DNA of 64,000 nt from a virus (IMGVR_UViG_3300037420_001796:1-64000); one strand, 5' to 3'; positions 6,078-32,928 are shown, counted from the first letter of the stretch. Numbers and translations: made by a program. The notes: a model not told the origin generated them from the sequence alone.

Positions 6078-6111
6078 GGGATTGCTATTAAGACGCCTTC
6101 GCCCCTAGTTT
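6078..6111 (+). promoter_or_regulatory. late promoter motif copy 1
   Basis: GGGATT-N18-CCCCTAGTTT before the HNH/terminase block. Confidence 0.7.
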
Positions 6112-6120
6112 CGGGGTGCG

Positions 6121-6576
6121 ATGCCCAAGAAGAACGGCAACAAGCCGCCGGAGCTGACACCCGAGGAAAAGCGCCGCCAGCGCAACCGCCGCTACTACGA
6201 GCGGCACCGGGAAAAGCTCCTCGTTAGCCAGCGAGAACGCTACGCCGAGCAGACGGTCGTCGAGCGCGCCAAGCAGCAATTTCGCTCCGCGCGCTACCGC
6301 GGCCAGGCCGAGCACATCCCGGAGTGGAACGACCTGGAGGAAGCCGCGCGCACGTACGTCGCGGCCATGATCATGACCGAGCTGACCGGCGAGCAGTACG
6401 TCGTGGACCATGTCGTGCCCCTGAACCACCCGCTCGTGTGCGGCTTGCACAGCCACCAGAACATGGAGGTGATCACCGCGCGCGAGAACGCGCTGAAGAA
6501 GAACCTGTTCTGGCCGGGCATGCCCGCGATCACGTGGGAGAGCTGGAAAATGATCGAATCGACCCAATTTCACTGA
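6121..6576 (+). CDS. HNH endonuclease
   Basis: DHVVPL..PLVCGLH..QNMEVITARENALKKN HNH signature. Confidence 0.85.
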   Translation: MPKKNGNKPPELTPEEKRRQRNRRYYERHREKLLVSQRERYAEQTVVERAKQQFRSARYRGQAEHIPEWNDLEEAARTYVAAMIMTELTGEQYVVDHVVPLNHPLVCGLHSHQNMEVITARENALKKNLFWPGMPAITWESWKMIESTQFH

Positions 6577-6604
6577 AAATTGCCTTACAATCTAGCGAAA
6601 TTCA

Positions 6605-7033
6605 ATGAAATCAGGCAGTTTTCACGCGAAAATGAGTGAAAAAGACTCAAAAACGAGCAAAAAAGTCGTCGATTTGAAGGCTTTAGTGGCCGAAATCGAG
6701 GCTGGAAAGCTCACCAAAAAGCAGGCCGCCGAGTCGATCGGCAAGACCTACGCGCACTTTTGCGTGATGCTCTCGCGCGCCGGCCTGATCGATCGCGTGC
6801 GCACGCGCCGCGCGGCGGCCAAGTACGACACCGATGCGATGAAAACTGCCGTCAACGAGGCGGTTTCGACGCTCGAGAAGACCGCCTTGAGCGACATCGC
6901 TCGCAAACACGGCATCCCCGATGCGCAATACGCGGCCTTCGCGATGCGCGTCCTCCACATAAAAAGAAGCCGCATGAAAGCGGACATCCTCCATGGCCAA
7001 ACCCAAGATTCCGGAGCTGCCGCAGGCGGCTGA
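6605..7033 (+). CDS. helix-turn-helix DNA-binding protein
   Basis: TKKQAAESIGKTYAHFCVMLSRAG and LSDIARKHGI HTH-like segments. Confidence 0.6.
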   Translation: MKSGSFHAKMSEKDSKTSKKVVDLKALVAEIEAGKLTKKQAAESIGKTYAHFCVMLSRAGLIDRVRTRRAAAKYDTDAMKTAVNEAVSTLEKTALSDIARKHGIPDAQYAAFAMRVLHIKRSRMKADILHGQTQDSGAAAGG

Positions 7034-7433
7034 AGGCGCGCAAAAGCGCGTGACTCACTCGCTGCAGGTCAACCTCGACGGCATGCCCGTCGACGAGTTG
7101 CTCGAGCTGCGCACCCTGATCGACCAGAAGCTGCCCGCGCGCCAGCTCAAGGACATCGACCTTGAGCAAGAGCTCGTGCTGCAGCTGCTTGCCACGCAGG
7201 AGCTGCAGCGCAAGGTGCTCAAGGACGACGAGGCGCCGGCCAACCAGATGGCGCAGGTCTCCAACGCGGTGCAGGCAGCCTTGCAAAACCTCGTGAAGCT
7301 GCAAGGAGAGGTCTTCAAGAGCGAACGCCTGAAGCGCCTGGAGACGATCCTGCTCGAATGCATCAAGGACTTGCCCCACGAGGTGCAGGACCAGTTCCTC
7401 ACGCTCTACGAGCTGAGGCTGGAGGGGCTGTGA
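6993..7433 (+). CDS. putative terminase small subunit
   Basis: Helical Leu/Gln-rich 146 aa upstream of TerL; assignment by position only. Confidence 0.45.
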   Translation: MAKPKIPELPQAAEGAQKRVTHSLQVNLDGMPVDELLELRTLIDQKLPARQLKDIDLEQELVLQLLATQELQRKVLKDDEAPANQMAQVSNAVQAALQNLVKLQGEVFKSERLKRLETILLECIKDLPHEVQDQFLTLYELRLEGL

Positions 7434-7734: not shown

Positions 7735-7992
7735 ATGGCGACTCTCAAACAACTCCTGACCGACGCGCGCGTCGCATTCGAAAACCGCGACGAATACGCG
7801 CACCGCTTCGCGCTCGAGCGAATCGCGAAGGCCTTTCCGCAGTACGCGCCCGCGGATCCCAGTCGTCCCGCGCAGACAGCTAACGTGACCTTCGCTCCGA
7901 ACATCGTCGCCTGCCGGCTCGGCTCGGGCGTGCAGGGCCTGCGCCAGTGTGAGTGCGAGTGCGGCCAGTGCTCGATTCGGAGGACGACGTGA
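7735..7992 (+). CDS. small protein with Cys-rich C-terminus
   Basis: 85 aa, CAA-rich leader, CECECGQC; stop overlaps TerL GTG. Confidence 0.6.
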   Translation: MATLKQLLTDARVAFENRDEYAHRFALERIAKAFPQYAPADPSRPAQTANVTFAPNIVACRLGSGVQGLRQCECECGQCSIRRTT

Positions 7993-9779
7993 CCAGCGAA
8001 CTCGTCACCGAACACGTCAAGCGCCTTCGCGCGGCGACCACGCACAAGCTGCACATGGGCGATGTGCCCAAGTGGGTCGCCGAGAACACGACCATCAACG
8101 GCCGGGCGTACTCGTTCAAGGACCACGAGTACCAGATCCGCACGATGGGCGACGAGTCGCAGGAGATCGTGATTCGCAAGTGTTCGCAGGTCGGCATTTC
8201 CGAGTCGGAGATCCGCAAGGCGTTGGGCCTCGTGGCGATCATGCCGCGCTACAACATCATCTACACGTTCCCGACGGCGACGTTCGCGTCCAACTACGTC
8301 AAGACGCGTATCGACCCCGTGATCCTGGGCTCGGCTGCCTTGCGCACGGCGATGCACAACGGCGTGGACTCGGCTGACACCAAGCAGGTCGGCGACAACT
8401 TCCTGTACTTCAAGGGCGCGCAGGCGGGCAACGCCGCGATCTCGGTGGCCGCGGACCACTTGATCCATGACGAGCTGGACTTCAGCGACATGGTGATCAT
8501 CTCGCAGTACCAGTCGCGCCTGACGCACTCGCCCTTCAAGCGCAAGACCAAGCTGTCCACGCCCACGATTCCCAAGGGCCCGATCGACAAGGAGTTCGCG
8601 GCCAGCCGCCGCCACTGGCTGTTCGTCAAGTGCGATCACTGCAACCACCAGTTCGTGCCCAACTACTACGAGCACGTGCTGATCCCGGGCTACAGCAACG
8701 ACCTGCGCTACATCACGAAGGACAACCTTCACACGATCCGCTATCACGAAGCGAAGCTGCACTGCCCGCGATGCGGCAAGGTGCCCAGCTTGCAGGTCGA
8801 GCACCGCCAGTGGGTGTGCGAAAACCCGAGCGAGAACCACCTTGCGGTGGGCTATCAGATCCAGCCGTTTGACGCGCCGAACCTCATCACGATCCCGTAT
8901 CTGGTGGAAGCGAGCACGCAGTACGACCGCATCGTCGACTTCCAGAACTTCAACCTCGGCTTGCCGGCGGAGGACAAGGACAACGGCCTGACGTTGGAAG
9001 ACATCGAGCGCTGCAAGGTGAACCTGCTCACCTCGCCGTTCACCACGCACGTGCTGGGCGGGGACATGGGCTTGCTGTGCCGCGTCGTGATCGGCAACTA
9101 CCTGCAGACCGGGGAGTTCCTCGTCGTGCACAAGGAGCAGATCCCGATCGGCAAGTTCAAGGTGCGCTACCGAGAGCTGTGCGCGCAGTTCCGCTGTACG
9201 GCCAAGGTGCTGGACGCGCAGCCGTACGTCGAGACGGTGATGTCGCTGCAGGAGGAAGACCCGAACCTGTACGGCGCTGTGTTCGTGCGCAAGGAAAAGC
9301 TGGAGGTGTACGACATCTCCACGCGCGAGGAAAACGAGGAGGCGGGCAAGACCGCGCTGCGCCAGGTCTCGATCAACCGCAACAAAGCGCTTGATTTGCT
9401 GATGGATGACATCCGCTACCAGGACGCCACAGGCATCAACAAGCCCATGATCCGTGTGAACGCGTCGGAAACCGAGGGCGCGGGCGGTGTGCCTTGGAAG
9501 GTGTTCACCGACCAGCTCACCGACATGAAGCGGATGAAAAAACTCACCGACTCGAACGACTTCGAGAACGTGTGGGTCAAGTCCGACGCGAAGAACGACC
9601 ACTTCCACTTCGGCCTGCTGTATGCGTGGGTGGCCGCGAAGCTGCGCGCGACGGTGGTCGGCGGCATCGAGCCGGGGATGATGGGCGTGTCCACGTTCAA
9701 GCACAAAACCAAGGAAGACTCGACGGTCTTCGGCGGCGCGCAGGCCGGGCGGCGAGGCACCGGTTTGCGAAGGGATTGA
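7989..9779 (+). CDS. terminase large subunit (lambda GpA-like)
   Basis: IRKCSQVGISE Walker A variant, IHDELD Walker B, CxxC...CxxC zinc motif, LGGDMG and NDHFH nuclease motifs; GTG with GGAGG RBS. Confidence 0.85.
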   Translation: MTSELVTEHVKRLRAATTHKLHMGDVPKWVAENTTINGRAYSFKDHEYQIRTMGDESQEIVIRKCSQVGISESEIRKALGLVAIMPRYNIIYTFPTATFASNYVKTRIDPVILGSAALRTAMHNGVDSADTKQVGDNFLYFKGAQAGNAAISVAADHLIHDELDFSDMVIISQYQSRLTHSPFKRKTKLSTPTIPKGPIDKEFAASRRHWLFVKCDHCNHQFVPNYYEHVLIPGYSNDLRYITKDNLHTIRYHEAKLHCPRCGKVPSLQVEHRQWVCENPSENHLAVGYQIQPFDAPNLITIPYLVEASTQYDRIVDFQNFNLGLPAEDKDNGLTLEDIERCKVNLLTSPFTTHVLGGDMGLLCRVVIGNYLQTGEFLVVHKEQIPIGKFKVRYRELCAQFRCTAKVLDAQPYVETVMSLQEEDPNLYGAVFVRKEKLEVYDISTREENEEAGKTALRQVSINRNKALDLLMDDIRYQDATGINKPMIRVNASETEGAGGVPWKVFTDQLTDMKRMKKLTDSNDFENVWVKSDAKNDHFHFGLLYAWVAAKLRATVVGGIEPGMMGVSTFKHKTKEDSTVFGGAQAGRRGTGLRRD

Positions 9780-9782
9780 CGG

Positions 9783-9817: not shown

Positions 9818-9822
9818 GGACG

Positions 9823-11355
9823 ATGCTCGCGCGACTTGGAAAGCTTCTGCGGTCGATGACGGGGTCGGCTCGGCCGCAGGCCGGCTCGACCCTGCCGCCC
9901 ATTGTGGACCCGAAGGTCCCCAACAAGCAGCAGACGCAGCAGTCGTTTTCCAAGCGCACGAAGACGACCAACGCGGACATCCGCATCCTCGAGACCGACC
10001 GCAGCACGGCCAGTCTCGATCTGCTGTCGCTGCGCTCGGGCAGCACCACCAAAGGGGTCATTCGCGACCTCGCGAAGGTCTCGCCCGACCTGTCCGGCGC
10101 GCGCTGGGCCTACCAGCGCATGGTGGTCACGCGCGGCTTCAACGCCATCGCCTACAACCAGGACGGCACGCCCAATCCGCAGGCGACCTCGGCGCTGCAG
10201 CAGCTGATCGCGCGCTTTAACAACCTCACGGACTACACCGACGGCTTTTCCGCGGTGGCGTCGCTGTACTCGGTGGCCGAGCAGCTCACGAGCGAGTTCG
10301 TGACGTATGGCGCCGCGTCCATGGAGCTCGTGCTTGACAAGGCGCGCCTTCCCAACCGCTTGCAGCCGATCTCCACGACGCAGCTGGTCTTCTACGAAGA
10401 GAAGTCCGACGGGTACACGTACCCGATCCAGCGCATCAACGGCAACGAGATCAACCTGGACATCCCGACGTTCTTCTACGAGTCGATCGATCAGGATCTG
10501 CTGCAGCCGTACAGCGACAGCCCGCTCGAGGCGGCGCTGCAGGCCACGCTTGCCGATGCCGAGTTCACGAATGACCTGCGCCGCACGATCAAGCGCGCGC
10601 TGCATCCGCGGCTGAAAGCCAAGATCGTCTACGACACGTTCAAAAAGACGATTCCTCCGAACGTGCTCGGCGACCCTGTGGCGCTGAAGGCGTATCACGA
10701 AGAGTTCATCGCCAACATAGCGGCGACGGTGAACTCGCTTGAGCCGGACGACGCGCTCGTCACGTTCGACACCACCGAATTCGATTACCTCAATAACGGC
10801 AACGTCACTCTGAACAAGGAGTGGGAGGTGATCGCGAACCTGATCAACGCCAAGCAGGCCACCGGCACGCACACGCCGCCGGCCGTGCTTGGCCACGGAT
10901 CGGGTTCGCAGAACATCGCATCCACGGAGACGATGCTTTTCGTGCGCTACTGCGAGGGCATCCAGAACCACGTCAATTCGATGCTCTCGCGTGCGCTGAC
11001 GCTTGGCGTGCGCCTCCTTGGCTACGACGTGTACGTCGAATTCTCGTTCGACCGTATCGACCTGCGGCCCGACAGCGAGCTCGAGGCGTTCCGCGTCATG
11101 CGTCAGGAACGAATCCTCGAGCAGCTGTCGTGGGGCTTCATCAGCGACGAGCAGGCCTCGATCCTGCTGACCGGCAAGCTGCCGCCGCCCGGCTTCAAGA
11201 AGCTCTCGGGCACGCAGTTCCAGGTGCAAAAGACCGAGTTCGGCAACGCCTCGAGTAACACCAGCAACGGCTCGGGCAACAGCAACTCGCAGCCGCAGGA
11301 CCAAAACAAGCAAACCCCCACGCAATCGAAAGGGCCCGTCACGCGGGTGAAGTGA
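9823..11355 (+). CDS. portal protein
   Basis: 510 aa between TerL and protease; size and synteny. Confidence 0.75.
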   Translation: MLARLGKLLRSMTGSARPQAGSTLPPIVDPKVPNKQQTQQSFSKRTKTTNADIRILETDRSTASLDLLSLRSGSTTKGVIRDLAKVSPDLSGARWAYQRMVVTRGFNAIAYNQDGTPNPQATSALQQLIARFNNLTDYTDGFSAVASLYSVAEQLTSEFVTYGAASMELVLDKARLPNRLQPISTTQLVFYEEKSDGYTYPIQRINGNEINLDIPTFFYESIDQDLLQPYSDSPLEAALQATLADAEFTNDLRRTIKRALHPRLKAKIVYDTFKKTIPPNVLGDPVALKAYHEEFIANIAATVNSLEPDDALVTFDTTEFDYLNNGNVTLNKEWEVIANLINAKQATGTHTPPAVLGHGSGSQNIASTETMLFVRYCEGIQNHVNSMLSRALTLGVRLLGYDVYVEFSFDRIDLRPDSELEAFRVMRQERILEQLSWGFISDEQASILLTGKLPPPGFKKLSGTQFQVQKTEFGNASSNTSNGSGNSNSQPQDQNKQTPTQSKGPVTRVK

Positions 11356-11356
11356 C

Positions 11357-12832
11357 ATGAACGAACTGATGGACATCAAGTTCTGGGCAGGCACGGAGGA
11401 GTCCTTCGGGGTCTACCTGCTTTGCCTGAAGAAGATGATCGACAGCGGCGACTTCGAGAAGTTCGCCGCGGGCGCGTTCGCCTCGCAGCAGTCGCAGGCG
11501 AGCGAAGAAGACGTGCCGCGCCTTTTCTCGCAGCACGGCAACGTCGGCATCGTCAAGATCGCCGGCCCCTTGAACAACTCGAGCTCGTGGCTCAACCAGG
11601 TGTACGGCATGACCGGCTACCCGGAGATCCGCGATGCGATGGTGTACGCGGCCAAGAAGCCCGACGTCGGCGCGATCGTGCTGGACGTGGGCTCCGGTGG
11701 CGGCGCGGTGGCCGGCGTGTTCGACACCGCGAACCTGATCTCCACGATCGACTCGCAGGTCAAGCCGGTTCACACCTTCTCCTCGGGCGGCATCATGTCC
11801 GCGGCCTACCTGCTTGGCTCGGCCGCGCGCACGGTGAACATCGATCAGATGGCCGAGGCCGGCTCGATCGGTGTCGTCGCGGTGCACCAGGAGATGAGCA
11901 AGATGCTTGCCGACATCGGCATCACGCCCACCGTGATCCGCTCGGGCAAGTACAAGGCGCTGGGCAATCCGTTCGAGCCACTGAACGACACCGCGAAGTC
12001 GGAAATGCAAAGCCAGGTCGACCACCTTGCGGGCATCTTCGATCAGCACGTGGCCGATCAGCGCGGCACGACTGCGCAGATCGTGAACGAGAAGATGGGT
12101 CAGGGTCGCATCTTCATCGGACAGCAAGCCAAGGATGTGGGCCTCGTCGACGGCATCAGTTCGTTCGACGCAGTGGTGTCCAAAATCCAAGGGGGGATTG
12201 ACTCTGCAAAAGACCGCTCCAAGTATGGCGCGAATTCCACGAACAAGAACAACCAAGGAATTCAAGCAGTGAAAACTCCTCTGACCGAAAAGGACATCGT
12301 CGCTCTTGCCGCGGCGGGCTTCGCCGTCAAGGCCGATGCCGAACTGACCGCCGAGCAGACGCAAGCGCTCGAAGCTGCTCGCAAGGCCGAGAAGGAAGCT
12401 GCTGACAAGGCCGCGTCCGACGCCGCTGCCGCTGCAGCCTCCAAGAACGACAAGACGCCCACGGCGCTCGAGCTCGTGCAAGGCCAACTTGCTGCCGCGC
12501 AGGCGCAAGTCACCAACCTCACGATCGAGCTGCGCGACGAGAAGGCCGCCAGCGAGAAGGTCAAGGGCTCGCACGCTTCGATGCGCGCGATCGTCGTGGC
12601 ATCCGCAGGTCGCATGAAGGTCGCGCTCGGCCAGACGCCCGGCGGCGAAGACGCACTGGATGACGCCGCTCTGCTCGCTGCTCACGAGGCTCTCGTGACC
12701 GAGTTCCAGAAGAAGTTCCCGGCCGGCGGCGTTGCCGCGGTGGCCGCGGACAAATCGAACAAGAGCCAAGACGCGTCCGATCCCACGCGCGCGGCTCGCA
12801 TCGCGGCGACGCGTCCCACCGGCAAGAAATAA
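11357..12832 (+). CDS. S49 (SppA/ClpP-like) prohead protease with C-terminal scaffold region
   Basis: IVLDVGSGGG, SAAYLLGSAA, GSIGV, SGKYK motifs; Ala/Lys-rich helical C-terminus. Confidence 0.9.
   Translation: MNELMDIKFWAGTEESFGVYLLCLKKMIDSGDFEKFAAGAFASQQSQASEEDVPRLFSQHGNVGIVKIAGPLNNSSSWLNQVYGMTGYPEIRDAMVYAAKKPDVGAIVLDVGSGGGAVAGVFDTANLISTIDSQVKPVHTFSSGGIMSAAYLLGSAARTVNIDQMAEAGSIGVVAVHQEMSKMLADIGITPTVIRSGKYKALGNPFEPLNDTAKSEMQSQVDHLAGIFDQHVADQRGTTAQIVNEKMGQGRIFIGQQAKDVGLVDGISSFDAVVSKIQGGIDSAKDRSKYGANSTNKNNQGIQAVKTPLTEKDIVALAAAGFAVKADAELTAEQTQALEAARKAEKEAADKAASDAAAAAASKNDKTPTALELVQGQLAAAQAQVTNLTIELRDEKAASEKVKGSHASMRAIVVASAGRMKVALGQTPGGEDALDDAALLAAHEALVTEFQKKFPAGGVAAVAADKSNKSQDASDPTRAARIAATRPTGKK
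12194..12227 (+). promoter_or_regulatory. late promoter motif copy 3 (inside protease gene)
   Basis: GGGATT-N17-CTCCAAGTATG. Confidence 0.6.
12269..12832 (+). CDS. nested scaffolding protein (in-frame internal start)
   Basis: In-frame GTG (codon 305) preceded by AACAAGAACAACCAAGGA leader and the internal promoter motif; analogous to lambda Nu3 within C. Confidence 0.65.
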   Translation: MKTPLTEKDIVALAAAGFAVKADAELTAEQTQALEAARKAEKEAADKAASDAAAAAASKNDKTPTALELVQGQLAAAQAQVTNLTIELRDEKAASEKVKGSHASMRAIVVASAGRMKVALGQTPGGEDALDDAALLAAHEALVTEFQKKFPAGGVAAVAADKSNKSQDASDPTRAARIAATRPTGKK

Positions 12833-12844: not shown

Positions 12845-13372
12845 ATGCCGAAGTTCCAGATGGGCGTCACGATCGCGCCCGACCAAATCAACGATACCGC
12901 GCGTATGGGCGGCGCCTCCGGCGCGAACCCCATGACGCAGAGCGACCAAGGCAAGTTCGTCAAGCTCGCTGGTGGCAGCCGCTATGACCTGTGCGACGCG
13001 GGCGACAAGATCGAAGGCATCGCGCAGACCGTGCAGGACCCCGACAAGGGCACCTACGACGGCTACACGCTTGGCGGCGTGCAGAAGGAAGGCCGCGCGA
13101 TCGCTTACGCCGATGGCTCTGAAGCCGCCGGCACGGGCTCGCTTGCCGTGGGCGACTATGTCGTGTGCGGCACCGTCGTGGCCAAGGGCACGGCCCTGAC
13201 CGACTACCCGAAGGTGCGCAAGGCGACGAACCAGCCCGGCTCGGTTCCTGCCGACCTGACTGCTGCGGCAGACCAGGTGAAGAACGCGATCTTCGCGTGG
13301 CGCGTCATCGAGATCCTGTCGGGCACCGGCGCCGTCGGCGACAAGGTCCTCATCGAACGCGTGACCGACTAA
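12845..13372 (+). CDS. head decoration / capsid cement protein
   Basis: 175-aa Gly-rich beta protein between protease and MCP. Confidence 0.6.
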   Translation: MPKFQMGVTIAPDQINDTARMGGASGANPMTQSDQGKFVKLAGGSRYDLCDAGDKIEGIAQTVQDPDKGTYDGYTLGGVQKEGRAIAYADGSEAAGTGSLAVGDYVVCGTVVAKGTALTDYPKVRKATNQPGSVPADLTAAADQVKNAIFAWRVIEILSGTGAVGDKVLIERVTD

Positions 13373-13405: not shown

Positions 13406-14587
13406 GTGGCAAAAGAACTGGTTTACGTCGCAGCTAACGGCGACAAGCTGCCGATGGACCTCTCGCTTGCGATGGTCAAGGAGGCGTGCGACGCTGGTGT
13501 CGGTCTGCGCGAGTGGATCAACGCCAAGTACCCCACCAACGCTGAGCGCGACGGCACCGCCTTCGAGCAGGCGATGGAGCAAGCGGGCCTGTTCATCGGC
13601 GGCAACCGCGCGATGGGCATCCGCAAGACCAACTTCGCGGACATCCTGAACCCCGCCAACGAGGCTGCGGGCTCGGTGATCACGCGCGACAACGTGCCGG
13701 CTTCGCGGATTCTGTTCCCGCCGGCCATCCTGTCGGTCATCGAAGACAAGCTGAAGGTCGACTACAGCGAGTCCACCGCCGCCATCAACTCGATGGTCGC
13801 GTACGAGGACTCCATCCAGGGCACGCGCTTCGAGCGCCCGGTGCTGAACTTCAGCAAGCCCGAAGCCGCTCGTTCGGCACCGGTTGCGCAGCTCTCGCTG
13901 CCCAACTCGATGCTCTCGATCACGGCGTCGGACAAGCCGATGGTCGTGCCGAGCTGGTCGCTGGGCATGGAGATCTCCGAGCAGGCGCTGCAGATCACCT
14001 CGGTGGACCTGGTAAGCCTTGCCCTCGGCCGTCAAGCCGAAGTCGAGCGAAGCGAGCGTTCGTTCACGCAGATCCTCGCGCTGCTCCAAGGCGACCCCGA
14101 CAACGGTCAGGCTGCATTGAGCGCCACCGAGGCGAAGACCCTCGACGCGTCGATCACGACCGACGGCGTGCTCACGCAAAAGGCGTGGGTGGCGTGGCTG
14201 TCGCGCAATGCGAACAAGCGTCGCATCGACACGATCGTGACCGACCTTGCCACGGCCATCGCGATCGAGAACCGCACTGGCAAGCCGGTGATCACGGGTG
14301 ACAACCCGAACAGCAAGCGCATCGACACGCTGTTCGAAGTGATGAACCCGCACTGGCCGGATCGCGTGAGGATCTTCCTCACGACCGACCCGAACTGGCC
14401 GGCCAACACGATCCTCGGCCTGGACACCCGCTACGGCGTCCACCGCGTGACGAGCCTGTCGGCGCAGTTCTCGGCGATCGAGCAGTTCGTGCTCAAGCGC
14501 TCCACCGCGATGCGCTTCGACAACGGCGAACTCCTGTATCGCCTGTTCGATGAGGCGTTCGACGTCCTCACGCTGACGACCGCGTAA
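13406..14587 (+). CDS. major capsid protein
   Basis: 393 aa, strong RBS, highly biased codons, followed by terminator; synteny. Confidence 0.8.
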   Translation: MAKELVYVAANGDKLPMDLSLAMVKEACDAGVGLREWINAKYPTNAERDGTAFEQAMEQAGLFIGGNRAMGIRKTNFADILNPANEAAGSVITRDNVPASRILFPPAILSVIEDKLKVDYSESTAAINSMVAYEDSIQGTRFERPVLNFSKPEAARSAPVAQLSLPNSMLSITASDKPMVVPSWSLGMEISEQALQITSVDLVSLALGRQAEVERSERSFTQILALLQGDPDNGQAALSATEAKTLDASITTDGVLTQKAWVAWLSRNANKRRIDTIVTDLATAIAIENRTGKPVITGDNPNSKRIDTLFEVMNPHWPDRVRIFLTTDPNWPANTILGLDTRYGVHRVTSLSAQFSAIEQFVLKRSTAMRFDNGELLYRLFDEAFDVLTLTTA

Positions 14588-16869: not shown

Positions 16870-17273
16870 GCTTTGACGCATTCCGCTCGGCCGTCGTATC
16901 GCAGATCAAGACGTGGATGACCGACAACTACCCGGCCGTTCCTGTGCAGTGGGAAAACGGACCACCGCTTGACCAGGATACGTGCGGGCCGCTGTGGCTG
17001 GACGTGTCCGTCAAGGTTCTCACCGGCAAGAACGTCACTTCCGGTGTCCGCGCGCGCGGGCGCGAAAACGGCGTGATCTCCACCAACTTGTATGTCAAGG
17101 CCGGCGAAGGCCTGCAGCAGGCCGATGCGATCGTCGAAGGCTTGCGAGAGCTGCTGCGCAACTGCCGCGTGGGCGGCGGCGTGCTGTTTTTCCCGGTGCG
17201 CGGCAACCCGCCGCAGATGCTTGGCTGGTACCAGCTGGCCCTGAAAACCCCCTTCTACCTCGACTCGGCGTAG
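16866..17273 (+). CDS. tail terminator protein
   Basis: 135 aa immediately before tail tube gene. Confidence 0.6.
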   Translation: MSFDAFRSAVVSQIKTWMTDNYPAVPVQWENGPPLDQDTCGPLWLDVSVKVLTGKNVTSGVRARGRENGVISTNLYVKAGEGLQQADAIVEGLRELLRNCRVGGGVLFFPVRGNPPQMLGWYQLALKTPFYLDSA

Positions 17274-17308
17274 GGGATTGATTTTTCGGAGGGCCTGTCC
17301 CTAGTCTG
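17274..17308 (+). promoter_or_regulatory. late promoter motif copy 4
   Basis: GGGATT-N18-TCCCTAGTCTG before tail tube gene. Confidence 0.75.
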
Positions 17309-17349
17309 GCCCGAACCTCCCAGAACAACAAGAACAAACGGAGAGAGCA

Positions 17350-19058: not shown

Positions 19059-19411
19059 CGGCGTACCTCTCCTGGAATTTGAAGTGGGGCGACAGCCTCA
19101 AGGCATTCAAGGAGAGGGCGCGCAAGACAGGGGTCAAGCCTGCTCCCCTGCTTGCCAGGCCGAAGATCAAGCGGCATGACGTGTGGTATCTGGAGGCCTT
19201 CCAGAGCCTGTCTGCCGCTCGGTCTAACGGCTTCTCCGGCGCGGAGCCCATCGCCATCTCCGAGATCGTCGCCTACCTCAACCTAGAGGGCGTCACAGAC
19301 CCGCAGGAGAGACGCCGCTTCCTGAACCTTGTGCAGCTGCTCGATTCCGAGTGGATGAAGTTTCACAGGGAGCGGGCCGAAGCGGCCCGACAAGCAGCCA
19401 AAAGAGGCTAG
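19049..19411 (+). CDS. tail chaperone frameshift extension (T-like part of GT fusion)
   Basis: -1 frame KRLTAYLSWNLKWGDS...AEPIAISEIVAY; no good independent start. Confidence 0.75.
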   Translation, partial: KRLTAYLSWNLKWGDSLKAFKERARKTGVKPAPLLARPKIKRHDVWYLEAFQSLSAARSNGFSGAEPIAISEIVAYLNLEGVTDPQERRRFLNLVQLLDSEWMKFHRERAEAARQAAKRG

Positions 19412-19445
19412 GGATTGCGCCCTGTCAAGGGGCGTCCCTAGTCTG
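19411..19445 (+). promoter_or_regulatory. late promoter motif copy 5
   Basis: GGGATT-N18-TCCCTAGTCTG before tape measure gene. Confidence 0.75.
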
Positions 19446-19490
19446 TGCTTTCCGAGGCCAGCCCTCGCATAAGAACAACAAGAGCGGGCG

Positions 19491-22400: not shown

Positions 22401-25400
22401 TCGTCTCGCGTGCAAGAGGCGTTCCTCAAGCAAAGCTACGACCGCGGAGTCATCTCGTATTCGGAGTATCAGCAGCAGCTGAGCACGCTGCAGTCGGATC
22501 ACGAGTCTCAGCGCCTTGCGCTGCTGGACGACGAGAAGTCCAAGGTCGAAGCGAAGATCAAGGACCTGCAAACCAAGATCGAAGGCATGAACCCGAAGAC
22601 GGGTCCTGCCGACCGCCTTCGCAATGATCTCGAGCAGCTTCGCCAGGAGCTCGCGCGCGTCAACGGCGAGATCACGAAGATCACCGACGACGGGCAGATT
22701 CGTGCGGAGCAGGCTCTGACGAAACTGCTTGCGCCGGCCGCCGAGATGGTGCGCAACGCCGAGAAGGAAGGAGCGCAGATCCAGAACAACTACCAGCAGG
22801 AGCTTGCCCGGCTGGCGGTGAAGAACAACATCGTGCAGCTCTCCGAGCGCGAGCAGTTCGTGCAGGCGGAGATCGGCAAGGCGGTGAACAGGCAGGAAGA
22901 CGAGCTGGCCAAGTACATGGCCACGCTCAAGGACCTGCTGGCCAACGTCAGCGACGCGGACTTGATGACCAACCCCGACGTGGCCGGGGCGATCGCCAAC
23001 CTGATGAAGGTCATCGCCGATGCTTCGCAGCGCCTCACCGACATGAAGGCCAACGTCGCGAAGGCGGCGAGCGAAGCATTCGACGCGCAAAAGATCAACG
23101 AGATGGCCAAGAGCCTGGACACCGGCATCGCCGATGCGATCGTCCAGGGTGGCCGCGACGGCCGGCAAAAGCTGCGCGACGTGCTCGAGGAGGAGCTGCT
23201 GCGCAAGCCGTTCAAGATGGTCATCGAGGCCATGCTGCAGCCCGTCACCAACGGACTTGCGAGCGCGGCCTACGGCATGTTCGGCCTGAACCAGTCCGGC
23301 ACGGGCCCGGCCAACAGCGCAGGGGCAGGCGGCGGCGGCGCGAACGGCCTTGGAATGGCCACTCAGCTGTTTGGCAGCTCCTTCGGGGCCAGCAGCATCG
23401 GCTTGAACAGCACCCTCACGCAGGCCACGATCTCCAACGGCTTGGTTTCGGGCTTCGGCGCGAACATGGCCAACATCGGCACCGCGATCGGATCGGGTGC
23501 ATTCGCTGATGCAGCGGCCATGGCGATCCCGTACATCGGCTGGGCGATCGCGGCCTACGAACTCTTGAAGGGCTCGTTCAAGGGCGAGACCCGCTCGGGC
23601 GGCCAGTACGGCTACAGCTTCGATGGCACCTCCGTATTTAACCCGCGTCGCGACATCACGCAAAGCGCCAATGGCATCGGCGCGACGTTCCTCGAGGGGC
23701 CGAGCGGTGGCGACCAGAATCAGGAAGCCGCGAAGGCCGCGCTGAACGGCACGTACGGCATCATCAACAACATCTTCGAGGGGCTGGGCACCAACATTCG
23801 TGTGACCGCTCTGCAGGGCGGCTACGAAAGCTCCGACAAGGGCCGCGGCGGTGTGTTCACCGGCGGCACGCTCACGGGCGGCATCAACTTCGGCGAATCC
23901 GGCAAGGGTGACAACTACGCCGGCACGCTATACGAAAAGACCAGCCCCCAGAGCCTGAGCGTCGAGCAGGCCTTCCAGAACTTCCTGACCGACCAGAAGC
24001 AGTCGGTCATCGAGGCGCTGCAGGCGTACGCGCAAAGCGTCGGCGCGCAGCTGCCCAACGCGATCCGCAAGCTCATCTCCGGCGTGGACGCCGAGTCGCT
24101 GTCGGACACCGACGCGCAGGCGCTGGTCGACAAGATCAACGCGACGATCCAAGGCGTCAAGGGCTTTTGGGATGCGGTGAACGGCGCGCCGGTGCAGCAG
24201 CTGAAGAACCTTGCGTTCGACGTTGCTGATGCCCTCGTGCAGGCCAGCGGCGGCCTCGAGCAGTTCAAGTCGAACCTGCAGTCGTTCGTGCAGAACTTCT
24301 ACTCGCCGGCCGAACAGCGCGCGGGCATCGTGTCTTCGATTACGAAGACCCTGCAGAACGCGGGCTTCAACGTCACCGAGAATCAGATCGCCTCGGCAAC
24401 GCGCGACCAGTTCCGCCAGCTTGCCGAATCGATCGACGTCACCACCGATTCCGGTGCTAAGGCGTACGCAACCCTCCTCAGCGTCGCCGGTGCGTTCGCT
24501 TCGATCACTACGTCCTCGCAAGATGCGACGCAGCAGCTGCAGGACCAGACGAAGAACCTGCAGGACCAGATCAAGACGCTGCAGGACTCGCAGGACACGT
24601 GGAAGTCGACCGAGCAGCGCTTGACCGACTTCATGAAGAGCCTTACGGACTTCCGTGACTCGCTGCTTCAGGGTGACCTGTCGCCGCTCACGCCGGTGCA
24701 AAAGTACCAGCAGGCGGGCAGTGACCTGCAGCAGCTGTTCGCGAAGGCGATGTCCGGCGATGCCGATGCGCAAAGCCAGTTCCAAGCGAAGGCACAGGAG
24801 TTCCTCAAGGACAGCCAGGCCGTCAACGCCAGCAGCGACACGTACACGTCTGACTTCAACATGGTCATGTCCATGTTGAGCCAGCTGAGCACCTCCGCGA
24901 CCTCGCAGCTGACGGACGCGCAGCAGCACGAAGCGGACTTCCAGCAGCAGATCACGATCCTGCAACAGCAGCTTGATGCGACGCAGACGCAGATCGACGC
25001 GATCCATAACGCGTCCGACACGATCACCACCGCCGTGCAGGGCTCCGGCATCGACATCGTGTCGGCGCTGCAGACCATCAACTCCACAGCGCAGTCCATC
25101 GTGGCGGCGGTGCAGCAGGTTGTGATTCCGTCGACGACGCCTAGCAGTACGAGTGGCGGCGGCAGCACGACGCCGGACAACAGCGGCGGCGGCCTTTACT
25201 ACGACGGTGTCACCCCCGACGGCCAGGGCGGCGCGTTTGCCGCGGGCGGCCTTGCCTCCGGCTGGTCGCTCGTGGGTGAAGAAGGCCCCGAGCTCGTGAA
25301 CTTCTCGAACCCGGGTCGCGTGTACACGGCCGCGCAGACGCGCGCCGCGCTTGGCGGCGGGATGAGCGATCAACTGCTTGCGCAGCTGCTCGATGCCGTG

Positions 25401-25547
25401 AACCGTCTCGTCGAGCAGCACGGCGCGGGCACCAACGCTTCGATCACCGCGACGCTGCAGGCCGCCGACAAGATTTCTGACGCGGTGGGCAGCGGCGCCA
25501 GCCGCACCCGCTGGTCGCAAAACGCCTCTTCGAGCATTGCCCAATGA
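19491..25547 (+). CDS. tape measure protein, 2018 aa
   Basis: Ala/Gln-rich, TP901-type core (FGPNEIAKALKSMALAG), C-terminal FAAGG..VGEEGPEL motif. Confidence 0.92.
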   Translation: MSDNLNIQLDGSQIIKGVDDVLSALREFKAAVADFSRNDPTGRVRAEVQQLSTAAVTVVQSVERTLGGVRSAVDKAMNEVASSAKAGGKKIGQEMADGLKQGVDELRAKAASNIDPRTLLGLDSDRVRKSATASAEIFMEAFRSQSAGRLDPRELLGLTPEALVKSAALSAETFKEAFALEASRAKSASNIDARTLLGLTPEVMAKDAAASAAVFMQAFETEAMRARSASNVDARTLLGLTPENLAKSARASAEVFAAEFDASMARLAGTARAQFNAALASAAPGSFQLLGGGRQGLVPPNAKPELDSLTSSMKEAHSAARGLASGFDAIWLTWGMLGPLLAGAAVSNAFVQSIKKGSEFEKTLETIGYVAGASAQDLQDLSKASLDMAKDSQFGPNEIAKALKSMALAGLDARQQLEALKPVVNFAIVGEMSLEKAAESTVAISTAFGYAATGYSAVQDVIAKAAAVSMSSIESMTQSFRTASVVAQQYGVSVKDAATSLALLSQMGIKGQAAGTALRNMYNELIGSSKKARETMQDLLKVEVIDNATKAMKPLAQILTDISKSLSQYDFKSQLAILQQMGNERGMKALSADLTAFVTAAHDAGKDVTTEFQRIQQELEDAPGFVALAAAGMMTTTSAQMKSVGAALEAALVRSFNSVNSQAQITAQKLKEIFNSDQFQQLLQNIISSLGRLVEALAENATSVAAVASGYVLGKAALIGYEAAAGLAATASAVLGESALGASVGVRALMASLGPIGALLALGATAWIIFGNSSESALEKAQKAADAHSKSITEGIDKEIERLQAQIAARKEGLDGAIAQRKAEADLQVSRLMELDEEQLKIEEARHAQVLFNREKLAGSEYAKTVDGEKALKAADVQVEQSRLRIAELVVNNVEKENALREKQRQLINLAKQDAQEAEQAAEKARSVMTGNLKYTPPDYTGAGSAYANELKQINLIISAAREKAQAIDESSRVQEAFLKQSYDRGVISYSEYQQQLSTLQSDHESQRLALLDDEKSKVEAKIKDLQTKIEGMNPKTGPADRLRNDLEQLRQELARVNGEITKITDDGQIRAEQALTKLLAPAAEMVRNAEKEGAQIQNNYQQELARLAVKNNIVQLSEREQFVQAEIGKAVNRQEDELAKYMATLKDLLANVSDADLMTNPDVAGAIANLMKVIADASQRLTDMKANVAKAASEAFDAQKINEMAKSLDTGIADAIVQGGRDGRQKLRDVLEEELLRKPFKMVIEAMLQPVTNGLASAAYGMFGLNQSGTGPANSAGAGGGGANGLGMATQLFGSSFGASSIGLNSTLTQATISNGLVSGFGANMANIGTAIGSGAFADAAAMAIPYIGWAIAAYELLKGSFKGETRSGGQYGYSFDGTSVFNPRRDITQSANGIGATFLEGPSGGDQNQEAAKAALNGTYGIINNIFEGLGTNIRVTALQGGYESSDKGRGGVFTGGTLTGGINFGESGKGDNYAGTLYEKTSPQSLSVEQAFQNFLTDQKQSVIEALQAYAQSVGAQLPNAIRKLISGVDAESLSDTDAQALVDKINATIQGVKGFWDAVNGAPVQQLKNLAFDVADALVQASGGLEQFKSNLQSFVQNFYSPAEQRAGIVSSITKTLQNAGFNVTENQIASATRDQFRQLAESIDVTTDSGAKAYATLLSVAGAFASITTSSQDATQQLQDQTKNLQDQIKTLQDSQDTWKSTEQRLTDFMKSLTDFRDSLLQGDLSPLTPVQKYQQAGSDLQQLFAKAMSGDADAQSQFQAKAQEFLKDSQAVNASSDTYTSDFNMVMSMLSQLSTSATSQLTDAQQHEADFQQQITILQQQLDATQTQIDAIHNASDTITTAVQGSGIDIVSALQTINSTAQSIVAAVQQVVIPSTTPSSTSGGGSTTPDNSGGGLYYDGVTPDGQGGAFAAGGLASGWSLVGEEGPELVNFSNPGRVYTAAQTRAALGGGMSDQLLAQLLDAVNRLVEQHGAGTNASITATLQAADKISDAVGSGASRTRWSQNASSSIAQ

Positions 25548-28518: not shown

Positions 28519-28545
28519 CCGGTTGGCAGAAAAGAAGAACAAGAA

Positions 28546-31359: not shown

Positions 31360-31976
31360 ACCTCCTCGACATCATGATGATGAAGAGGCCGGCGATCAAA
31401 TCTGGGCCCACATTCCGGTCGGTTGGTACGGCAGTAGCCGGATCGAATCCAACAGTCGGCACTCCCCCCGGGTTTCAGGCCGGCGACTTGCTCGTGCTCG
31501 CGGGAACAGGCGGGCAGAATGCGTACTCGCTGCCAGCAGGTTGGTCCAACGGAGAATCCGCAGGCAACGCGCCACGTGAAGCCTTGTTCTATAAGTTTGC
31601 GACGGGCTCTGAAACTTCGGTATCCGTTAGCAATGGAGGCGGAAGTGGGCAGATAGTGATGCTCGCGTACAGCGGCGTTACCGCTCTGGATGTGCTGGGT
31701 ACTCGCAAGACAGCATCGACCGCGACCGCGTCGACTAATTCGCTCACCACGAGCGTTCCCAATGCGCTCGTCATCAGCCTGTTCTCGGAAGACACCACGG
31801 GCACCGTACCGGGCACTGTCACTGGCACGACTATCCGCTACGCAGACAACACGACTGGCCGTTCGCTCGTGGTAGTCGATGAGATCCAGGCTGTTGCTGG
31901 AGCTAGCACTTCCCGCTCGTGCACCTTTGGTTTAGCCGCCAGTAACGCAGGATTTTCAGCCGCCTTCAAGCCATGA
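31356..31976 (+). CDS. putative fibre-associated / receptor-binding protein
   Basis: 206 aa beta-rich; visibly more A/T at third codon positions than neighbours. Confidence 0.55.
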   Translation: MNLLDIMMMKRPAIKSGPTFRSVGTAVAGSNPTVGTPPGFQAGDLLVLAGTGGQNAYSLPAGWSNGESAGNAPREALFYKFATGSETSVSVSNGGGSGQIVMLAYSGVTALDVLGTRKTASTATASTNSLTTSVPNALVISLFSEDTTGTVPGTVTGTTIRYADNTTGRSLVVVDEIQAVAGASTSRSCTFGLAASNAGFSAAFKP

Positions 31977-32539
31977 AGTACATCAACACACAGACACTCG
32001 AATACCCGTTTACCGAGTTGCAAATCAAAGTGCTGCCGCAATTCGACAACTGCGCGTTCGGAGATCCGTTCGTACCTCCGCCGCCGTTCGAAAAAGTAGT
32101 CGACACGGAGCCCCCGACGTACGACCCCGTCACGCAACTGCTCGTCGAGGTGACGCCTGTCGCAGACGCCTCTGGGGTGTGGTCTCAGCAGTGGTCGGTG
32201 CAGGCGCGGCCGCTCGCCGACGTACAGGCTGCAGTGTCGAACGACATCGTCGACAAGGTGCAGCAACGGCTTGACGACTTCGCGCGCACGCGCGACTACG
32301 ACGGAATCGCGAGCCTTGCGGGCTACGCAGGAGACGACGATCCTGTCTTCAACGTCGAAGGCACATACGGCAAGAAGATGCGCAGCCAAACGTGGCGCAA
32401 GGTCTATCAGATCCAGTCCGATGCGAACGCGGGCAACTGGCCGACGGCCGGCGCCGGGCAGATGCCGATGTCCTACGCAGACATCGAGTCGTCGCTTCCG
32501 GCACTCGCCTGGCCGAATCAAGTGGGGCAGACGACATGA
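31973..32539 (+). CDS. tail fibre assembly-like protein (DUF4376-like)
   Basis: P.YDPVTQ.L.E..P and VQQRLDDFARTRDYD.I.S motifs. Confidence 0.6.
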   Translation: MKYINTQTLEYPFTELQIKVLPQFDNCAFGDPFVPPPPFEKVVDTEPPTYDPVTQLLVEVTPVADASGVWSQQWSVQARPLADVQAAVSNDIVDKVQQRLDDFARTRDYDGIASLAGYAGDDDPVFNVEGTYGKKMRSQTWRKVYQIQSDANAGNWPTAGAGQMPMSYADIESSLPALAWPNQVGQTT

Positions 32540-32871
32540 CGTGGGAACCCGCGCTCATCCTCGCGTACCTGTGGGTCTTCTGGGGCATGTACGTGCTCGT
32601 CATGGGACTGTATCGCGCCTACCTCGACAACCGCTTGAGCCGGGCCGCCAAGGTCCTCGGCTTTCCGTACCTAGCCTTCGGCTACGTGATGGACGTCAGC
32701 TGCAATCTCACGATCGCCACGGTGGTGTTTCTGGAGCTGCCGCGCGAGGGGCTCGTGACACAGCGCCTCACGCGCCTGCAGCGCAGCTCCGGCTGGCGCC
32801 AGAAGGTCGCTTTCTGGGTGTGCACGAAGCTGCTTGACCCCTTCGATCCGAGCGGAAAGCACTGCTCGTAG
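32536..32871 (+). CDS. conserved phage membrane protein
   Basis: 111 aa, hydrophobic N-half, LVTQRL..WVC..LLDPFDPSGKHC. Confidence 0.65.
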   Translation: MTWEPALILAYLWVFWGMYVLVMGLYRAYLDNRLSRAAKVLGFPYLAFGYVMDVSCNLTIATVVFLELPREGLVTQRLTRLQRSSGWRQKVAFWVCTKLLDPFDPSGKHCS

Positions 32872-32893
32872 GAGTCAATCCCCGACAACGACG

Positions 32894-32928
32894 GGGATTC
32901 CATTTTGCCCAGCGTTCCCCCAAGTATG
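32894..32928 (+). promoter_or_regulatory. late promoter motif copy 6
   Basis: GGGATT-N18-CCCCAAGTATG before lysis cassette. Confidence 0.65.

Follow-up and report, generated by a model that had tools for sequence, protein, structure and literature searches.

A conserved two-part signal at six predicted late-gene promoters of an uncultured temperate phage

RESULTS AND DISCUSSION

Late gene blocks and their upstream sites

The analyzed window comprises 64,000 nucleotides (IMGVR_UViG_3300037420_001796:1-64000) of an 85,254-bp viral record. Six matches to the exact pattern GGGATT-N19/20-CCnAGTnT, in which N19/20 corresponds to the N17/18 plus YY of the first-pass annotation, all on the + strand, were found at 6078, 9783, 12194, 17274, 19411, and 32894. 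The first, P1 (6078..6111, +; 29 bits on the weight matrix described below), heads a block comprising an HNH/endonuclease VII-like gene (6121-6576), a tandem helix-turn-helix (HTH) gene, and the genes for the small and large (7953-9779) terminase subunits. Its -10-like hexamer, TAGTTT, ends 9 nt upstream of the ATG of the HNH gene, and equivalents of P1 precede small-terminase or HNH genes in the related records G004 and G063 and in the Variovorax prophage L063. P2 (9783..9816, +; 36 bits) occupies the 43-nt gap between the terminase and portal (9823-11355) genes, with its -10-like hexamer TAGTCT ending 6 nt upstream of the portal ATG. An orphan second GGGATTGAC box (9772..9777, +), which has no matching -10 half, lies 11 nt upstream of P2.

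P3 (12194..12226, +; 37 bits) lies in frame within the open reading frame of the S49 protease (11357-12832), just past the protease domain (amino acids 133 to 277). Downstream of it, a CAA-rich leader and then AAGGA precede an in-frame GTG (12269), the start of a nested scaffold frame (12269..12832, +) that forms the C-terminal part of the protease reading frame in a lambda C/Nu3-like arrangement. The in-frame scaffold start and the preceding AAGGA are kept in relatives, where the start codon varies among ATG, GTG, and TTG; P3 itself is kept at the same place in G001 to G004, G056, G057, G062, G063, and L063 and is degenerate in the divergent relative G065. The major capsid protein is encoded at 13406-14587. 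P4 (17274..17307, +; 36 bits) starts right after the TAG stop codon of the preceding gene and is followed by a 42-nt CAA-rich leader and the major tail protein gene (17350-18579), with syntenic copies in all full relatives. P5 (19411..19444, +; 22 bits) overlaps the TAG stop codon of the second tail-chaperone-like gene, 46 nt upstream of the GTG of the tape measure gene (19491-25547); its syntenic copies in relatives sit inside coding sequence. P6 (32894..32927, +; 32 bits) heads the lysis block and lies 28 nt upstream of the probable holin ATG at 32956 (holin, 32905/32956-33171; endolysin, 33168-33722). The gene blocks behind the six copies are those named in the first-pass annotation, with the exception of the "decoration" label given to 12845-13372, for which no family match was obtained. 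A terminator scan detected no terminator-like sites above chance between the late blocks.

Specificity of the motif within the genome

No match to the exact motif occurred in 100 dinucleotide shuffles, and the whole 85,254-bp record contained six forward and no reverse matches; a control in which the pattern was read backwards gave none. On a two-block weight matrix derived from 50 sites of the family, the six copies scored 22 to 37 bits; except for readings of two of them displaced by one base, no other position on either strand exceeded 15 bits. Given this clear separation of scores and the absence of copies on the minus strand and in early genes of this genome, the six-copy motif proposed from the initial reading of the sequence is real, and its copies behave as a single strand-specific late regulon. 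Two details of that proposal were likewise borne out: three copies share TCCCTAGTCTG exactly, and five have the longer spacer, the copy at 12194 having the shorter one.

A literature search on the motif and on late promoters of Variovorax phages returned nothing relevant. Fourteen kilobases of the late arm had no nucleotide match among 50,697 cultured phage records, and a search with the portal protein recovered only distant relatives (≤32% identity, the nearest cultured relative being at 32%). The signal is undescribed, although the kind of switch is familiar.

Conservation in relatives and occurrence in host genomes

The motif recurs at syntenic positions in ten related phage or prophage records of 56 to 86 kb, one of them a Variovorax paradoxus prophage, with 4 to 10 sites in each. 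Across these relatives the boxes are fixed and the spacers have diverged. A lack of conservation in relatives, like frequent minus-strand or early-gene copies, had been named at the outset as evidence against the motif, and neither outcome was seen, the second being judged in this genome. About 94% of strong sites are on the late strand; for sites above 24 bits in the first seven genomes, the share is 40/43, with three strong copies on the other strand in relatives (G004 at 55329; G056 at 71660 and 73300). In G065, GGGATT persists 21 to 22 nt from the hexamers TAGCCT, CAGCAT, AAATAT, and TATATT, in which A-11 and T-7 alone are retained. This pattern suggests recognition of the -10 half by a sigma70-type factor, with the GGGATT box as the special part of the signal. 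Two collection-wide scans of IMG/VR yielded multicopy contigs that each carry all of their copies on one strand; those examined belong to this phage clade. Single hits in ten contigs checked from the first scan, where the matched stretches looked AT-rich, were treated as chance occurrences, and three further contigs from the second scan also had one copy each. As the six sites front virion and lysis blocks and recur at the same places in relatives, they are almost certainly late-gene promoters of a temperate phage, a prediction made at the sequence level.

The 41 Variovorax genomes searched contained 7 exact matches, 4 of them in the ISL-3 prophage, compared with 5 matches to a control pattern with the wrong spacing (N17/18 directly before CC); a relaxed half-pattern occurred 2 to 4 times per genome. 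The motif is thus at chance level in Variovorax chromosomes and is not a host regulon signal there, with the proviso that Variovorax was the only genus sampled and may not include the true host of this phage.

The phage is temperate: it has an integrase gene (36002-37201), and its relatives are classed as proviruses or located in Variovorax genomes. Promoters fronting the holin and endolysin genes must therefore be silent in the lysogen. No operator-like sequence common to the six sites was found beyond the promoter boxes themselves.

Promoter geometry

The geometry of the sites was examined in 49 strong sites and their base composition in 34. The spacer between the two hexamers is 17 nt in 36/49 sites and 18 nt in 13/49, so that the long spacer ascribed to the motif at the outset does not hold for the family. 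The same applies to the proposed GGGA...TCCC dyad, as TCCC occurs in only 6 of the 49 strong sites and only its CC is fixed. The most frequent -35-like hexamers are TTGACT (9 sites), TTTACT (8), TTGCTT (6), TTCCAT (4), and TTGACA (2), besides others; none has A in the third position, and the fourth position holds A or C in 33/34 sites. In the -10-like hexamer nAGTnT, A-11 and T-7 are invariant and G-10/T-9 are fixed, and hexamers such as CAGTAT, AAGTAT, CAGTCT, and TAGTCT match TATAAT at 2 to 4 of 6 positions. The base right after this hexamer is G or C in all 34 sites, and A is enriched 7 to 8 nt downstream of it.

The portal ATG lies 6 to 7 nt past the hexamer, leaving no room for a ribosome-binding site, in nine genomes (among the relatives, G001, G002, G003, G004, G057, G062, G065, and L063); G056 has 11 nt instead. 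This spacing points to a likely transcription start and would make the mRNA leaderless: judged from the sequence, transcription probably begins about 7 nt downstream of the hexamer, which in P2 would be at the portal ATG.

Three features of the sites are fixed, namely, GGGA at about -39 to -36, CC at -14/-13, and G-T at -10/-9, and none of them is needed by ordinary sigma70 promoters. None of the six sites passed a loose sigma70 consensus filter. Scans for the sigma70 consensus and for terminators found nothing above chance in either arm; in the late arm, the filter gave one hit, located elsewhere, against 2.1 expected, and then none against 2.2.

These observations bear on an account of the sites in which no phage factor is involved, the housekeeping sigma factor of the host or an alternative one, such as a heat-shock or stationary-phase sigma, reads them, and timing is set by repression, read-through, or gene dosage. 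Several sites have good -35 hexamers (TTGACT, TTGACA, TTTACT) and an optimal spacer, A-11 and T-7 are kept, and the CC upstream of the -10 hexamer recalls the -10 regions of sigma32- and sigmaS-type promoters. Against this stand the failure of all six sites to pass the consensus filter, the lack of a role for GGGA, CC, and G-T in a plain sigma70 promoter, and the absence from Variovorax of a host regulon of either the motif or the relaxed half-pattern. Furthermore, constitutive holin and endolysin promoters would be lethal to a lysogen, and the sites share no operator. We therefore regard control by host sigma factors alone as unlikely.

It is very improbable that the sites are something other than promoters, such as processing or antitermination signals, binding sites for a nucleoid or packaging protein, or translational signals. 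Some copies can fold (mean z-score of the local folding energy, -0.84; 9/43 sites below -2), and both P3 and the tape-measure copies of relatives are inside coding sequence, as such functions might allow. However, the sites have no shared structure, their spacer sequences are unrelated, and no Rfam family matched. The two boxes, the 17- or 18-nt spacer, the G/C-rich discriminator, and the fixed 6- to 7-nt distance to a start codon lacking a ribosome-binding site fit a promoter, and the copies within coding sequences sit exactly ahead of internal or downstream gene starts.

Search for phage-encoded specificity factors

The first-pass annotation had recognized no phage sigma factor or RNA polymerase, and none was detected in our Pfam searches. 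Sigma70_r2 and Sigma70_r4_2 gave no match at an E value of ≤1 in a six-frame Pfam search, a type of search that could miss a very divergent factor, and the single Sigma70_r4 match (12 bits, below the cutoff) was inside an SbcD-like gene. The T7-type polymerase family PF00940 also gave no match, in a search whose control was itself positive in 0/14 control genomes; the variable spacer of the motif argues against a contiguous T7-type promoter of about 20 nt. Mor (PF08765) had no match at an E value of ≤1 in the six frames of the 85-kb genome, and there was no Q-like protein among the proteins scanned.

Other proteins considered included conserved unknowns of 278 and 332 amino acids, which had no sigma-like signal, a 965-amino-acid protein without Pfam hits, which is the primase, and a small protein near the dNMP kinase gene, kept in relatives, which is a two-helix membrane protein. 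The conserved unknowns examined are a winged-helix protein, a Pam3_Gp34/DUF5895-like protein, and a weakly replication-like protein. A conserved 162-amino-acid protein (59957-60445) is absent from G056, which carries the motif.

These results also weigh on the idea that a very divergent or split sigma-like factor encoded by the phage takes the place of all or part of the host sigma and reads the sites, one part recognizing GGGATT and another CCnAGTnT. Invariant bases dispensable to sigma70 occur in both halves (GGGA, CC, and G-10/T-9), the two halves keep a rigid spacing, Variovorax chromosomes carry the signal at no more than chance level, and small conserved core proteins without assigned function exist (the 115-amino-acid winged-helix protein and the 162-amino-acid protein). 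Yet no Sigma70_r2, r4, or r4_2 signal emerged from the six-frame searches, the unknowns examined belong to the three classes listed above, and the 162-amino-acid protein is missing from a genome with the motif. The relaxation of the -10 half to a generic nAnnnT in G065 is what would be expected for sigma70. A sigma-like factor is accordingly quite doubtful.

Candidate readers of the GGGATT box

The best candidate for the reader of the GGGATT box, with a putative role in late transcription, is a 115-amino-acid winged-helix protein (48917..49264, -) with a conserved C-terminal YPxWLEPRxLP tail. Homologues with 40 to 51% identity and invariant helix residues are present in all 11 family genomes, and the AlphaFold model has a pLDDT of >90 over residues 10 to 60. 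Its best fold matches were PadR/MarR/ArsR winged helices (E value of about 7e-3); fold searches gave only generic winged-helix matches, and the family profile had no hit against PDB sequences. The protein belongs to an orphan family of 112 clusters, which includes members in Variovorax prophages. Its gene belongs to the replication module and moves together with that module; the shared occurrence of gene and motif is therefore not distinctive, and the protein could instead be a replication protein or another DNA-binding protein.

The adjacent gene (49261..49494, -) overlaps the start of the winged-helix gene, is kept in all family genomes, and encodes a TraR/DksA-type zinc-finger protein (zf-dskA_traR, 28.8 bits, above the cutoff; PHROG 54). 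Members of the TraR/DksA family bind polymerase rather than DNA, and this protein is a probable RNA polymerase secondary-channel binder. Both genes had been listed among the possible activators from the start and are retained in all relatives, while a further candidate, 63262-63519, is not conserved in relatives and is an unlikely reader. The gene just upstream of the first motif copy (5650-6030), considered because of its position, likewise lacks conservation, and its product resembles a small membrane or secreted protein.

The second candidate is the tandem-HTH protein (6605..7033, +) at the head of the late arm. It was also named at the outset. Positional homologues are present upstream of the small terminase gene in G001 to G004, G056, G057, G062, and G063 (profile-profile comparison, 78% probability; E value of 1.8e-5), and two relatives match HTH_psq above the cutoff. 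These homologues are very divergent, with 12 to 24% identity to the protein and no invariant column. Although late activators are classically encoded at this location, the protein is far too divergent to be expected to read an almost invariant box. The domain is fused to Peptidase_S24 in G003 and G004, and the G002 copy aligns over its full length including the S24 part; the S24 fusion in three relatives points to a repressor. The gene lies downstream, not upstream, of P1 in this window.

Comparison with known late-promoter systems

[quoted passage not shown] The sites described here resemble that system in being dispersed late promoters of a temperate phage that would be switched together by a small phage DNA-binding protein acting on the sigma70 holoenzyme. 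Unlike in Mu, the sites have a good -35 hexamer, the unusual part is the -10 half, and the invariant element is GGGA(TT), short and asymmetric, directly adjoining the -35 element; in addition, this phage has no Mor/C-family gene. The binding site of Mu C and Mor is a dyad between about -30 and -55, whereas inspection by eye revealed no obvious shared dyad in the 60 nt upstream of the six sites, and the site alignment carries little information upstream of the extra G.

Phages P2, 186, and P4 have four late operons, each with an activator-dependent promoter, and use the small zinc-finger activators Ogr, B, and Delta. The present phage is similar in having a promoter for each late block and a gene for a small zinc-finger protein, but the only such protein found belongs to the zf-dskA_traR family and not to Ogr/Delta. 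The Ogr site TGT-N12-ACA, at about -55, was not found within 80 nt upstream of any site. The putative box of F116-like phages is different, being of the CCCTGTAGGG type and 22 to 24 nt from the hexamer, compared with GGGATT at 21 to 22 nt here. In sigma appropriation by MotA and AsiA, T4 middle promoters combine a sigma70 -10 element with a phage box at a fixed distance that is read by MotA, with sigma70 retained. The likeness lies in the sigma70-type -10 element and the phage-specific upstream box at a fixed distance; the difference is that the MotA box replaces the -35 element at about -30, while a -35-like hexamer is kept here and the box is just upstream.

As with lambda Q, late virion and lysis genes of a temperate siphophage are to be expressed, but lambda relies on one late promoter and one long antiterminated transcript, whereas six or more separate promoters are predicted here. 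This contrast was drawn when the motif was first described; no excess of terminator-like sites was seen between the blocks. Multiple late promoters that depend on an activator are an established design, familiar from Mu, P2, and P1.

Proposed mechanism

On balance, we consider it probable that host RNA polymerase uses the six sites as late promoters and that this use requires a phage factor reading GGGA(TT) at about -39 to -34. The sites would serve as promoters of packaging, portal/protease, scaffold/capsid, tail, tape measure/distal tail, and lysis units. Their geometry would be that of a sigma70-family promoter, with TTGACT, TTTACT, or TTGCTT followed after 17 or 18 nt by nAGTnT, which the host holoenzyme alone would use inefficiently. 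A phage protein made in lytic growth would bind GGGA(TT) next to or overlapping the -35 element and recruit or stabilize polymerase, turning on all late units together. The reader may be the winged-helix protein, possibly with the adjacent TraR-like protein; the tandem-HTH protein would be the second choice. Dependence on a phage factor appears to be the most economical explanation, as this is a temperate phage whose lysis genes bear the same signal.

An activator positioned at -35 leaves the fixed CC and G-T of the -10 half unaccounted for, which could indicate a different, sigma-like reader. A more speculative variant, which we judge a long shot, is that the winged-helix protein, perhaps with the TraR-like protein, is a new kind of subunit conferring promoter specificity. 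In that case it would substitute for sigma region 4 or remodel it, dock on polymerase through YPxWLEPRxLP, and read the GGGATT box, with CC-nAGTnT read by a remodeled sigma region 2/3. If true, this would be a case of sigma appropriation unrelated to that of T4 MotA/AsiA (PMC6070864), in a temperate phage of soil Betaproteobacteria.

Implications

Activation of host RNA polymerase by a phage factor at these sites would be of interest for the new signal and its reader and not for the principle. For an uncultured clade of temperate siphophages of about 75 to 86 kb in Variovorax-like soil bacteria, the six sites provide a precise map of late transcription that lends itself to testing, with six predicted start sites and a predicted leaderless portal mRNA. 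The promoter embedded in the protease gene would set the dose of scaffold and capsid independently of the protease. A host-silent promoter with its cognate phage factor, once that factor is identified, may offer an orthogonal expression switch for Burkholderiales. In metagenomic fragments, the motif is a marker by which members of the clade may be recognized and their late arm oriented.

Six motif sites and the genes that follow them

The first-pass annotation had described a bipartite motif, and its pattern was indeed found six times in the window (6078, 9783, 12194, 17274, 19411, and 32894; sites P1 to P6), always on the + strand, compared with no match in 100 dinucleotide-preserving shuffles. 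The window is the first 64 kb of its source record, an IMG/VR virus record of 85,254 bp with 127-bp terminal repeats, which contained the identical six sites and none on the opposite strand. We adopted the more convenient notation GGGATT-N19/20-CCnAGTnT, with GGGATT referred to as the box and nAGTnT as the −10-like hexamer. A weight matrix of two blocks, derived from 50 family sites, gave the six sites scores of 22 to 37 bits when both strands of the 85 kb were scanned. No other position on either strand exceeded 15 bits, except where two of the six were read one base out of register, and the set is therefore closed and sharply set off from the background. The observation of a six-copy motif is thus confirmed, and the interpretation given with it is partly supported.

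A + strand arm from approximately 5.6 to 37.2 kb bears the virion, lysis, and integration genes, as judged from third-position GC and family searches, and a − strand arm of replication and accessory genes makes up the remainder. The hexamer of P1 (6078) ends 9 nt before the start codon of an HNH/endonuclease VII-like gene heading the packaging block. P2 (9783) fills the 43-nt gap between the terminase and portal genes, its hexamer ending 6 nt before the portal start codon. P3 (12194) sits in frame within the S49 protease open reading frame (ORF), right after the protease domain. Downstream of it come a CAA-rich leader, an AAGGA sequence, and then the in-frame GTG (12269; 42 nt past the hexamer) that starts a nested scaffold gene, the same kind of nesting as in lambda C/Nu3. 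The major tail gene, the tape measure gene, and the holin gene (probable ATG at 32956) start 42, 46, and 28 nt past the hexamers of P4 (17274), P5 (19411), and P6 (32894), respectively. The first + strand ORF (5650 to 6030), just upstream of P1, has no conserved counterpart in relatives; from MKYLIAS on, it appears by eye to be signal peptide-like, followed by a C-terminal hydrophobic stretch.

Conservation in related phages

A portal protein search retrieved five related IMG/VR records (60 to 64% identical) as well as a Variovorax paradoxus ISL-3 contig carrying a related prophage. Scanning the entire IMG/VR collection for the motif and searching with the winged-helix protein discussed below yielded further relatives, and ten records (G001 to G004, G056, G057, G061 to G063, and G065) were compared in full. 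Contigs with a single match in the collection-wide scans had, where checked, one copy each and were treated as chance. Neither lack of conservation nor strand symmetry, both of which the first-pass annotation had named as contrary to its reading, was observed. All records covering the late arm had 4 to 10 sites, with fixed boxes and spacers unrelated in sequence. Their positions are syntenic: sites precede the small terminase or HNH gene, the portal gene, the major tail gene, and distal tail and lysis genes, whereas others lie within the protease gene ahead of the scaffold start and ahead of or within the chaperone/tape-measure junction.

Among the first seven genomes, 40 of the 43 sites above 24 bits were on the late strand; the others were one antisense site in G004 and two sites in G056. 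The G004 copy (30 bits; minus strand, position 55329 in portal-plus orientation) lies at the portal-protease junction and may be either an antisense promoter or a match arising by chance within a CAA-rich leader. Both G056 copies (L195; record positions 71660 and 73300, minus strand) are of full strength and face early-strand accessory gene blocks, so the regulon in this phage extends past virion and lysis genes. Each is followed by a hairpin and then a ribosome site.

Anatomy of the motif

An additional G preceded GGGATT at 27 of 34 sites. Together with the next four bases, the TT of the box forms a −35-like hexamer (TTGACT at 9 sites, TTTACT at 8, TTGCTT at 6, TTCCAT at 4, and others), separated from the −10-like hexamer by 17 nt at 36 of 49 sites and by 18 nt at 13; the 18-nt spacer is the minority form in the family. 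Within the −10 half (CAGTAT, 15 sites; AAGTAT, 11; CAGTCT, 11; TAGTCT, 5), A−11, G−10, T−9, and T−7 are invariant, and CC precedes. The first base past the hexamer is G or C at 34 of 34 sites, the following five are G/C rich, and A is enriched 7 to 8 nt downstream of the hexamer. The GGGA...TCCC dyad proposed earlier did not hold up. TCCC immediately precedes the hexamer at only 6 of 49 sites, and the dyad is an accident of three copies in the window.

The box is very often directly abutted by the TAG stop codon of the preceding gene (TAGGGGATT; window positions 17271 to 17279 and 19409 to 19416). As this overlap occurs at many sites in G001, G056, G057, G062, G063, and G065, stop codon choice seems to be coupled to the promoter. 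A second GGGATTGAC box at 9772 to 9782, 11 nt upstream of P2 and without a −10 partner, may offer the predicted factor an additional place to bind. At P6, an inverted repeat (AATCCCCG-N9-CGGGGATT; 32871 to 32899) ends in the box, and its first half is GGGATT in reverse complement.

Predicted transcription starts and leaders

The portal start codon lies 6 to 7 nt past the hexamer in the genome studied here, G001 to G004, G057, G062, G065, and the Variovorax prophage, and 11 nt past it in G056. In the window, it is the earliest possible start codon in the ORF, and as the promoter fills the terminase-portal gap, a ribosome-binding site has no room. We infer that the portal mRNA is leaderless, and the fixed −10-to-AUG distance is what such an mRNA predicts. 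This distance is also the strongest indirect evidence that nAGTnT would be a true −10 element.

Leaders fall into two classes: none or almost none (P1 and P2) and approximately 20 to 40 nt rich in AAGAACAA-type words. The AAGAACAA/CAACAAGA words occur in the leaders after four of the six sites (12227 to 12268, 17308 to 17349, 19445 to 19490, and 32928 to 32955) and ahead of the major tail gene in relatives, and they may act as a translational enhancer in this GC-rich genome.

An RNA-level role for the sites, or a function as non-promoter binding sites, is unlikely, since the late arm has no match to any Rfam family, terminator-like sites are no more frequent than expected by chance, and local folding at the sites exceeds that of shuffled sequence only slightly, with no common structure. 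Exact matches with the correct spacing numbered seven in 41 Variovorax genomes (approximately 265 Mb), four of them in the ISL-3 prophage, compared with five matches to a wrong-spacing control pattern. The relaxed pattern GATT-N19/20-CCnAGTnT occurred only 2 to 4 times per genome outside the prophage. Thus, the motif marks no host regulon in Variovorax, which is the sole nameable host genus, although the host of the phage studied here may differ.

Recognition of the motif

Six-frame searches of the genome bear out the earlier statement that no phage sigma factor is recognizable. Sigma70_r2, Sigma70_r4_2, and Mor/C protein had no match, and the single Sigma70_r4 match (12 bits) lies within the SbcD-like gene. 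The search for a T7-type polymerase was also without a match, but it was likewise silent in all control genomes. A loose sigma70 consensus filter rejects the six sites on account of their −10 halves.

The divergent relative G065 (L222 to L224) has a lower GC content (56%). It keeps the GGGATT box at the same distance at the portal, tail, and tape-measure positions, with hexamers (TAGCCT, CAGCAT, AAATAT, and TATATT) that retain only A−11 and T−7 and are ordinary nAnnnT −10 hexamers; the copy within the protease gene, ahead of the scaffold start, is degenerate in this genome. This pattern is as expected if phage specificity resides in the GGGA(TT) box and an ordinary sigma70-type region 2 reads the −10 half. 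G057 tolerates the box variants GGGGTT and GGGCTT, and G063 also has a relaxed −10 half. Such a model does not account for the CC and G-T that are fixed in the main clade.

Late control in phages Mu, P2, and P1 is of the same functional kind as that predicted here, with several dispersed promoters that the host polymerase cannot use unaided. Mu late promoters have a recognizable −10 and a missing −35 element (PMC2582627). In contrast, the unusual half here is the −10, a short asymmetric box abuts a good −35 hexamer, and there is no Mor/C gene. The sites also differ from Ogr-type promoters in that the upstream Ogr element is absent. Searches of the literature and of cultured-phage sequences yielded no account of the motif or the clade.

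Candidate regulators

The conserved core, defined by comparison of all ORFs in the first seven genomes and extended to four more records by tblastn of the window-genome proteins, consists of the virion module and a replication module. The latter includes SbcCD-like proteins, a RecU-like protein, an exonuclease, a dNMP kinase, a MazG-like protein, a family A polymerase, a primase, an SNF2 helicase, and a ligase. Of the small core proteins, only two that could plausibly act in transcription occur in all genomes. The first (115 aa; 48917 to 49264) is 40 to 51% identical across the family, with invariant helix residues and a conserved YPxWLEPRxLP tail. Its AlphaFold model is a winged helix, confident over residues 10 to 60, with PadR, MarR, and ArsR regulators as best fold matches (E of approximately 7e-3). 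The protein family comprises 112 clusters, including Variovorax prophage proteins, and has no Pfam domain and no distant relatives. The second, encoded by an overlapping gene (49261 to 49494), is a TraR/DksA-type zinc-finger protein, a family that binds polymerase rather than DNA.

At the head of the late arm, downstream of P1, lies the gene for a tandem helix-turn-helix protein (psq-type; 6605 to 7033, + strand). All relatives have a counterpart by position, upstream of their small terminase gene (L055:17282-18190 and L059:13382-14188 among them). Homology of the window copy to the others is only moderately supported (hhalign 78%, E of 1.8e-5), and two relatives' proteins match HTH_psq above the cutoff. 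In G003 and G004, the domain forms the N-terminal part of a fusion with an S24 LexA/CI-type peptidase, and the G002 copy aligns over the whole length, S24 part included. This suggests that the fused form is an SOS-cleavable repressor encoded beside the terminase genes. The family has no invariant column and only 12 to 24% identity to the window copy, a divergence that fits badly with an almost invariant DNA box. Due to these drawbacks (moderate homology, S24 fusion, divergence, and location downstream of P1), the winged-helix protein is ranked first, as a tentative candidate for the reader of the motif. The tandem helix-turn-helix protein, ranked second, is a doubtful one, and the remaining probability falls to some factor not yet recognized.

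Proposed late control in a temperate phage

The phage is temperate, as indicated by its integrase gene (36002 to 37201) and by relatives that are classed as proviruses or lie inside Variovorax genomes. As the identical signal precedes the holin and endolysin genes, the promoters must be off in the lysogen. No shared sequence usable as an operator was found among the sites, and activation by a lytic-program product would be the simplest solution. Overall, we propose that such a phage product switches on the late promoters, rather than their being repressed through a shared operator.
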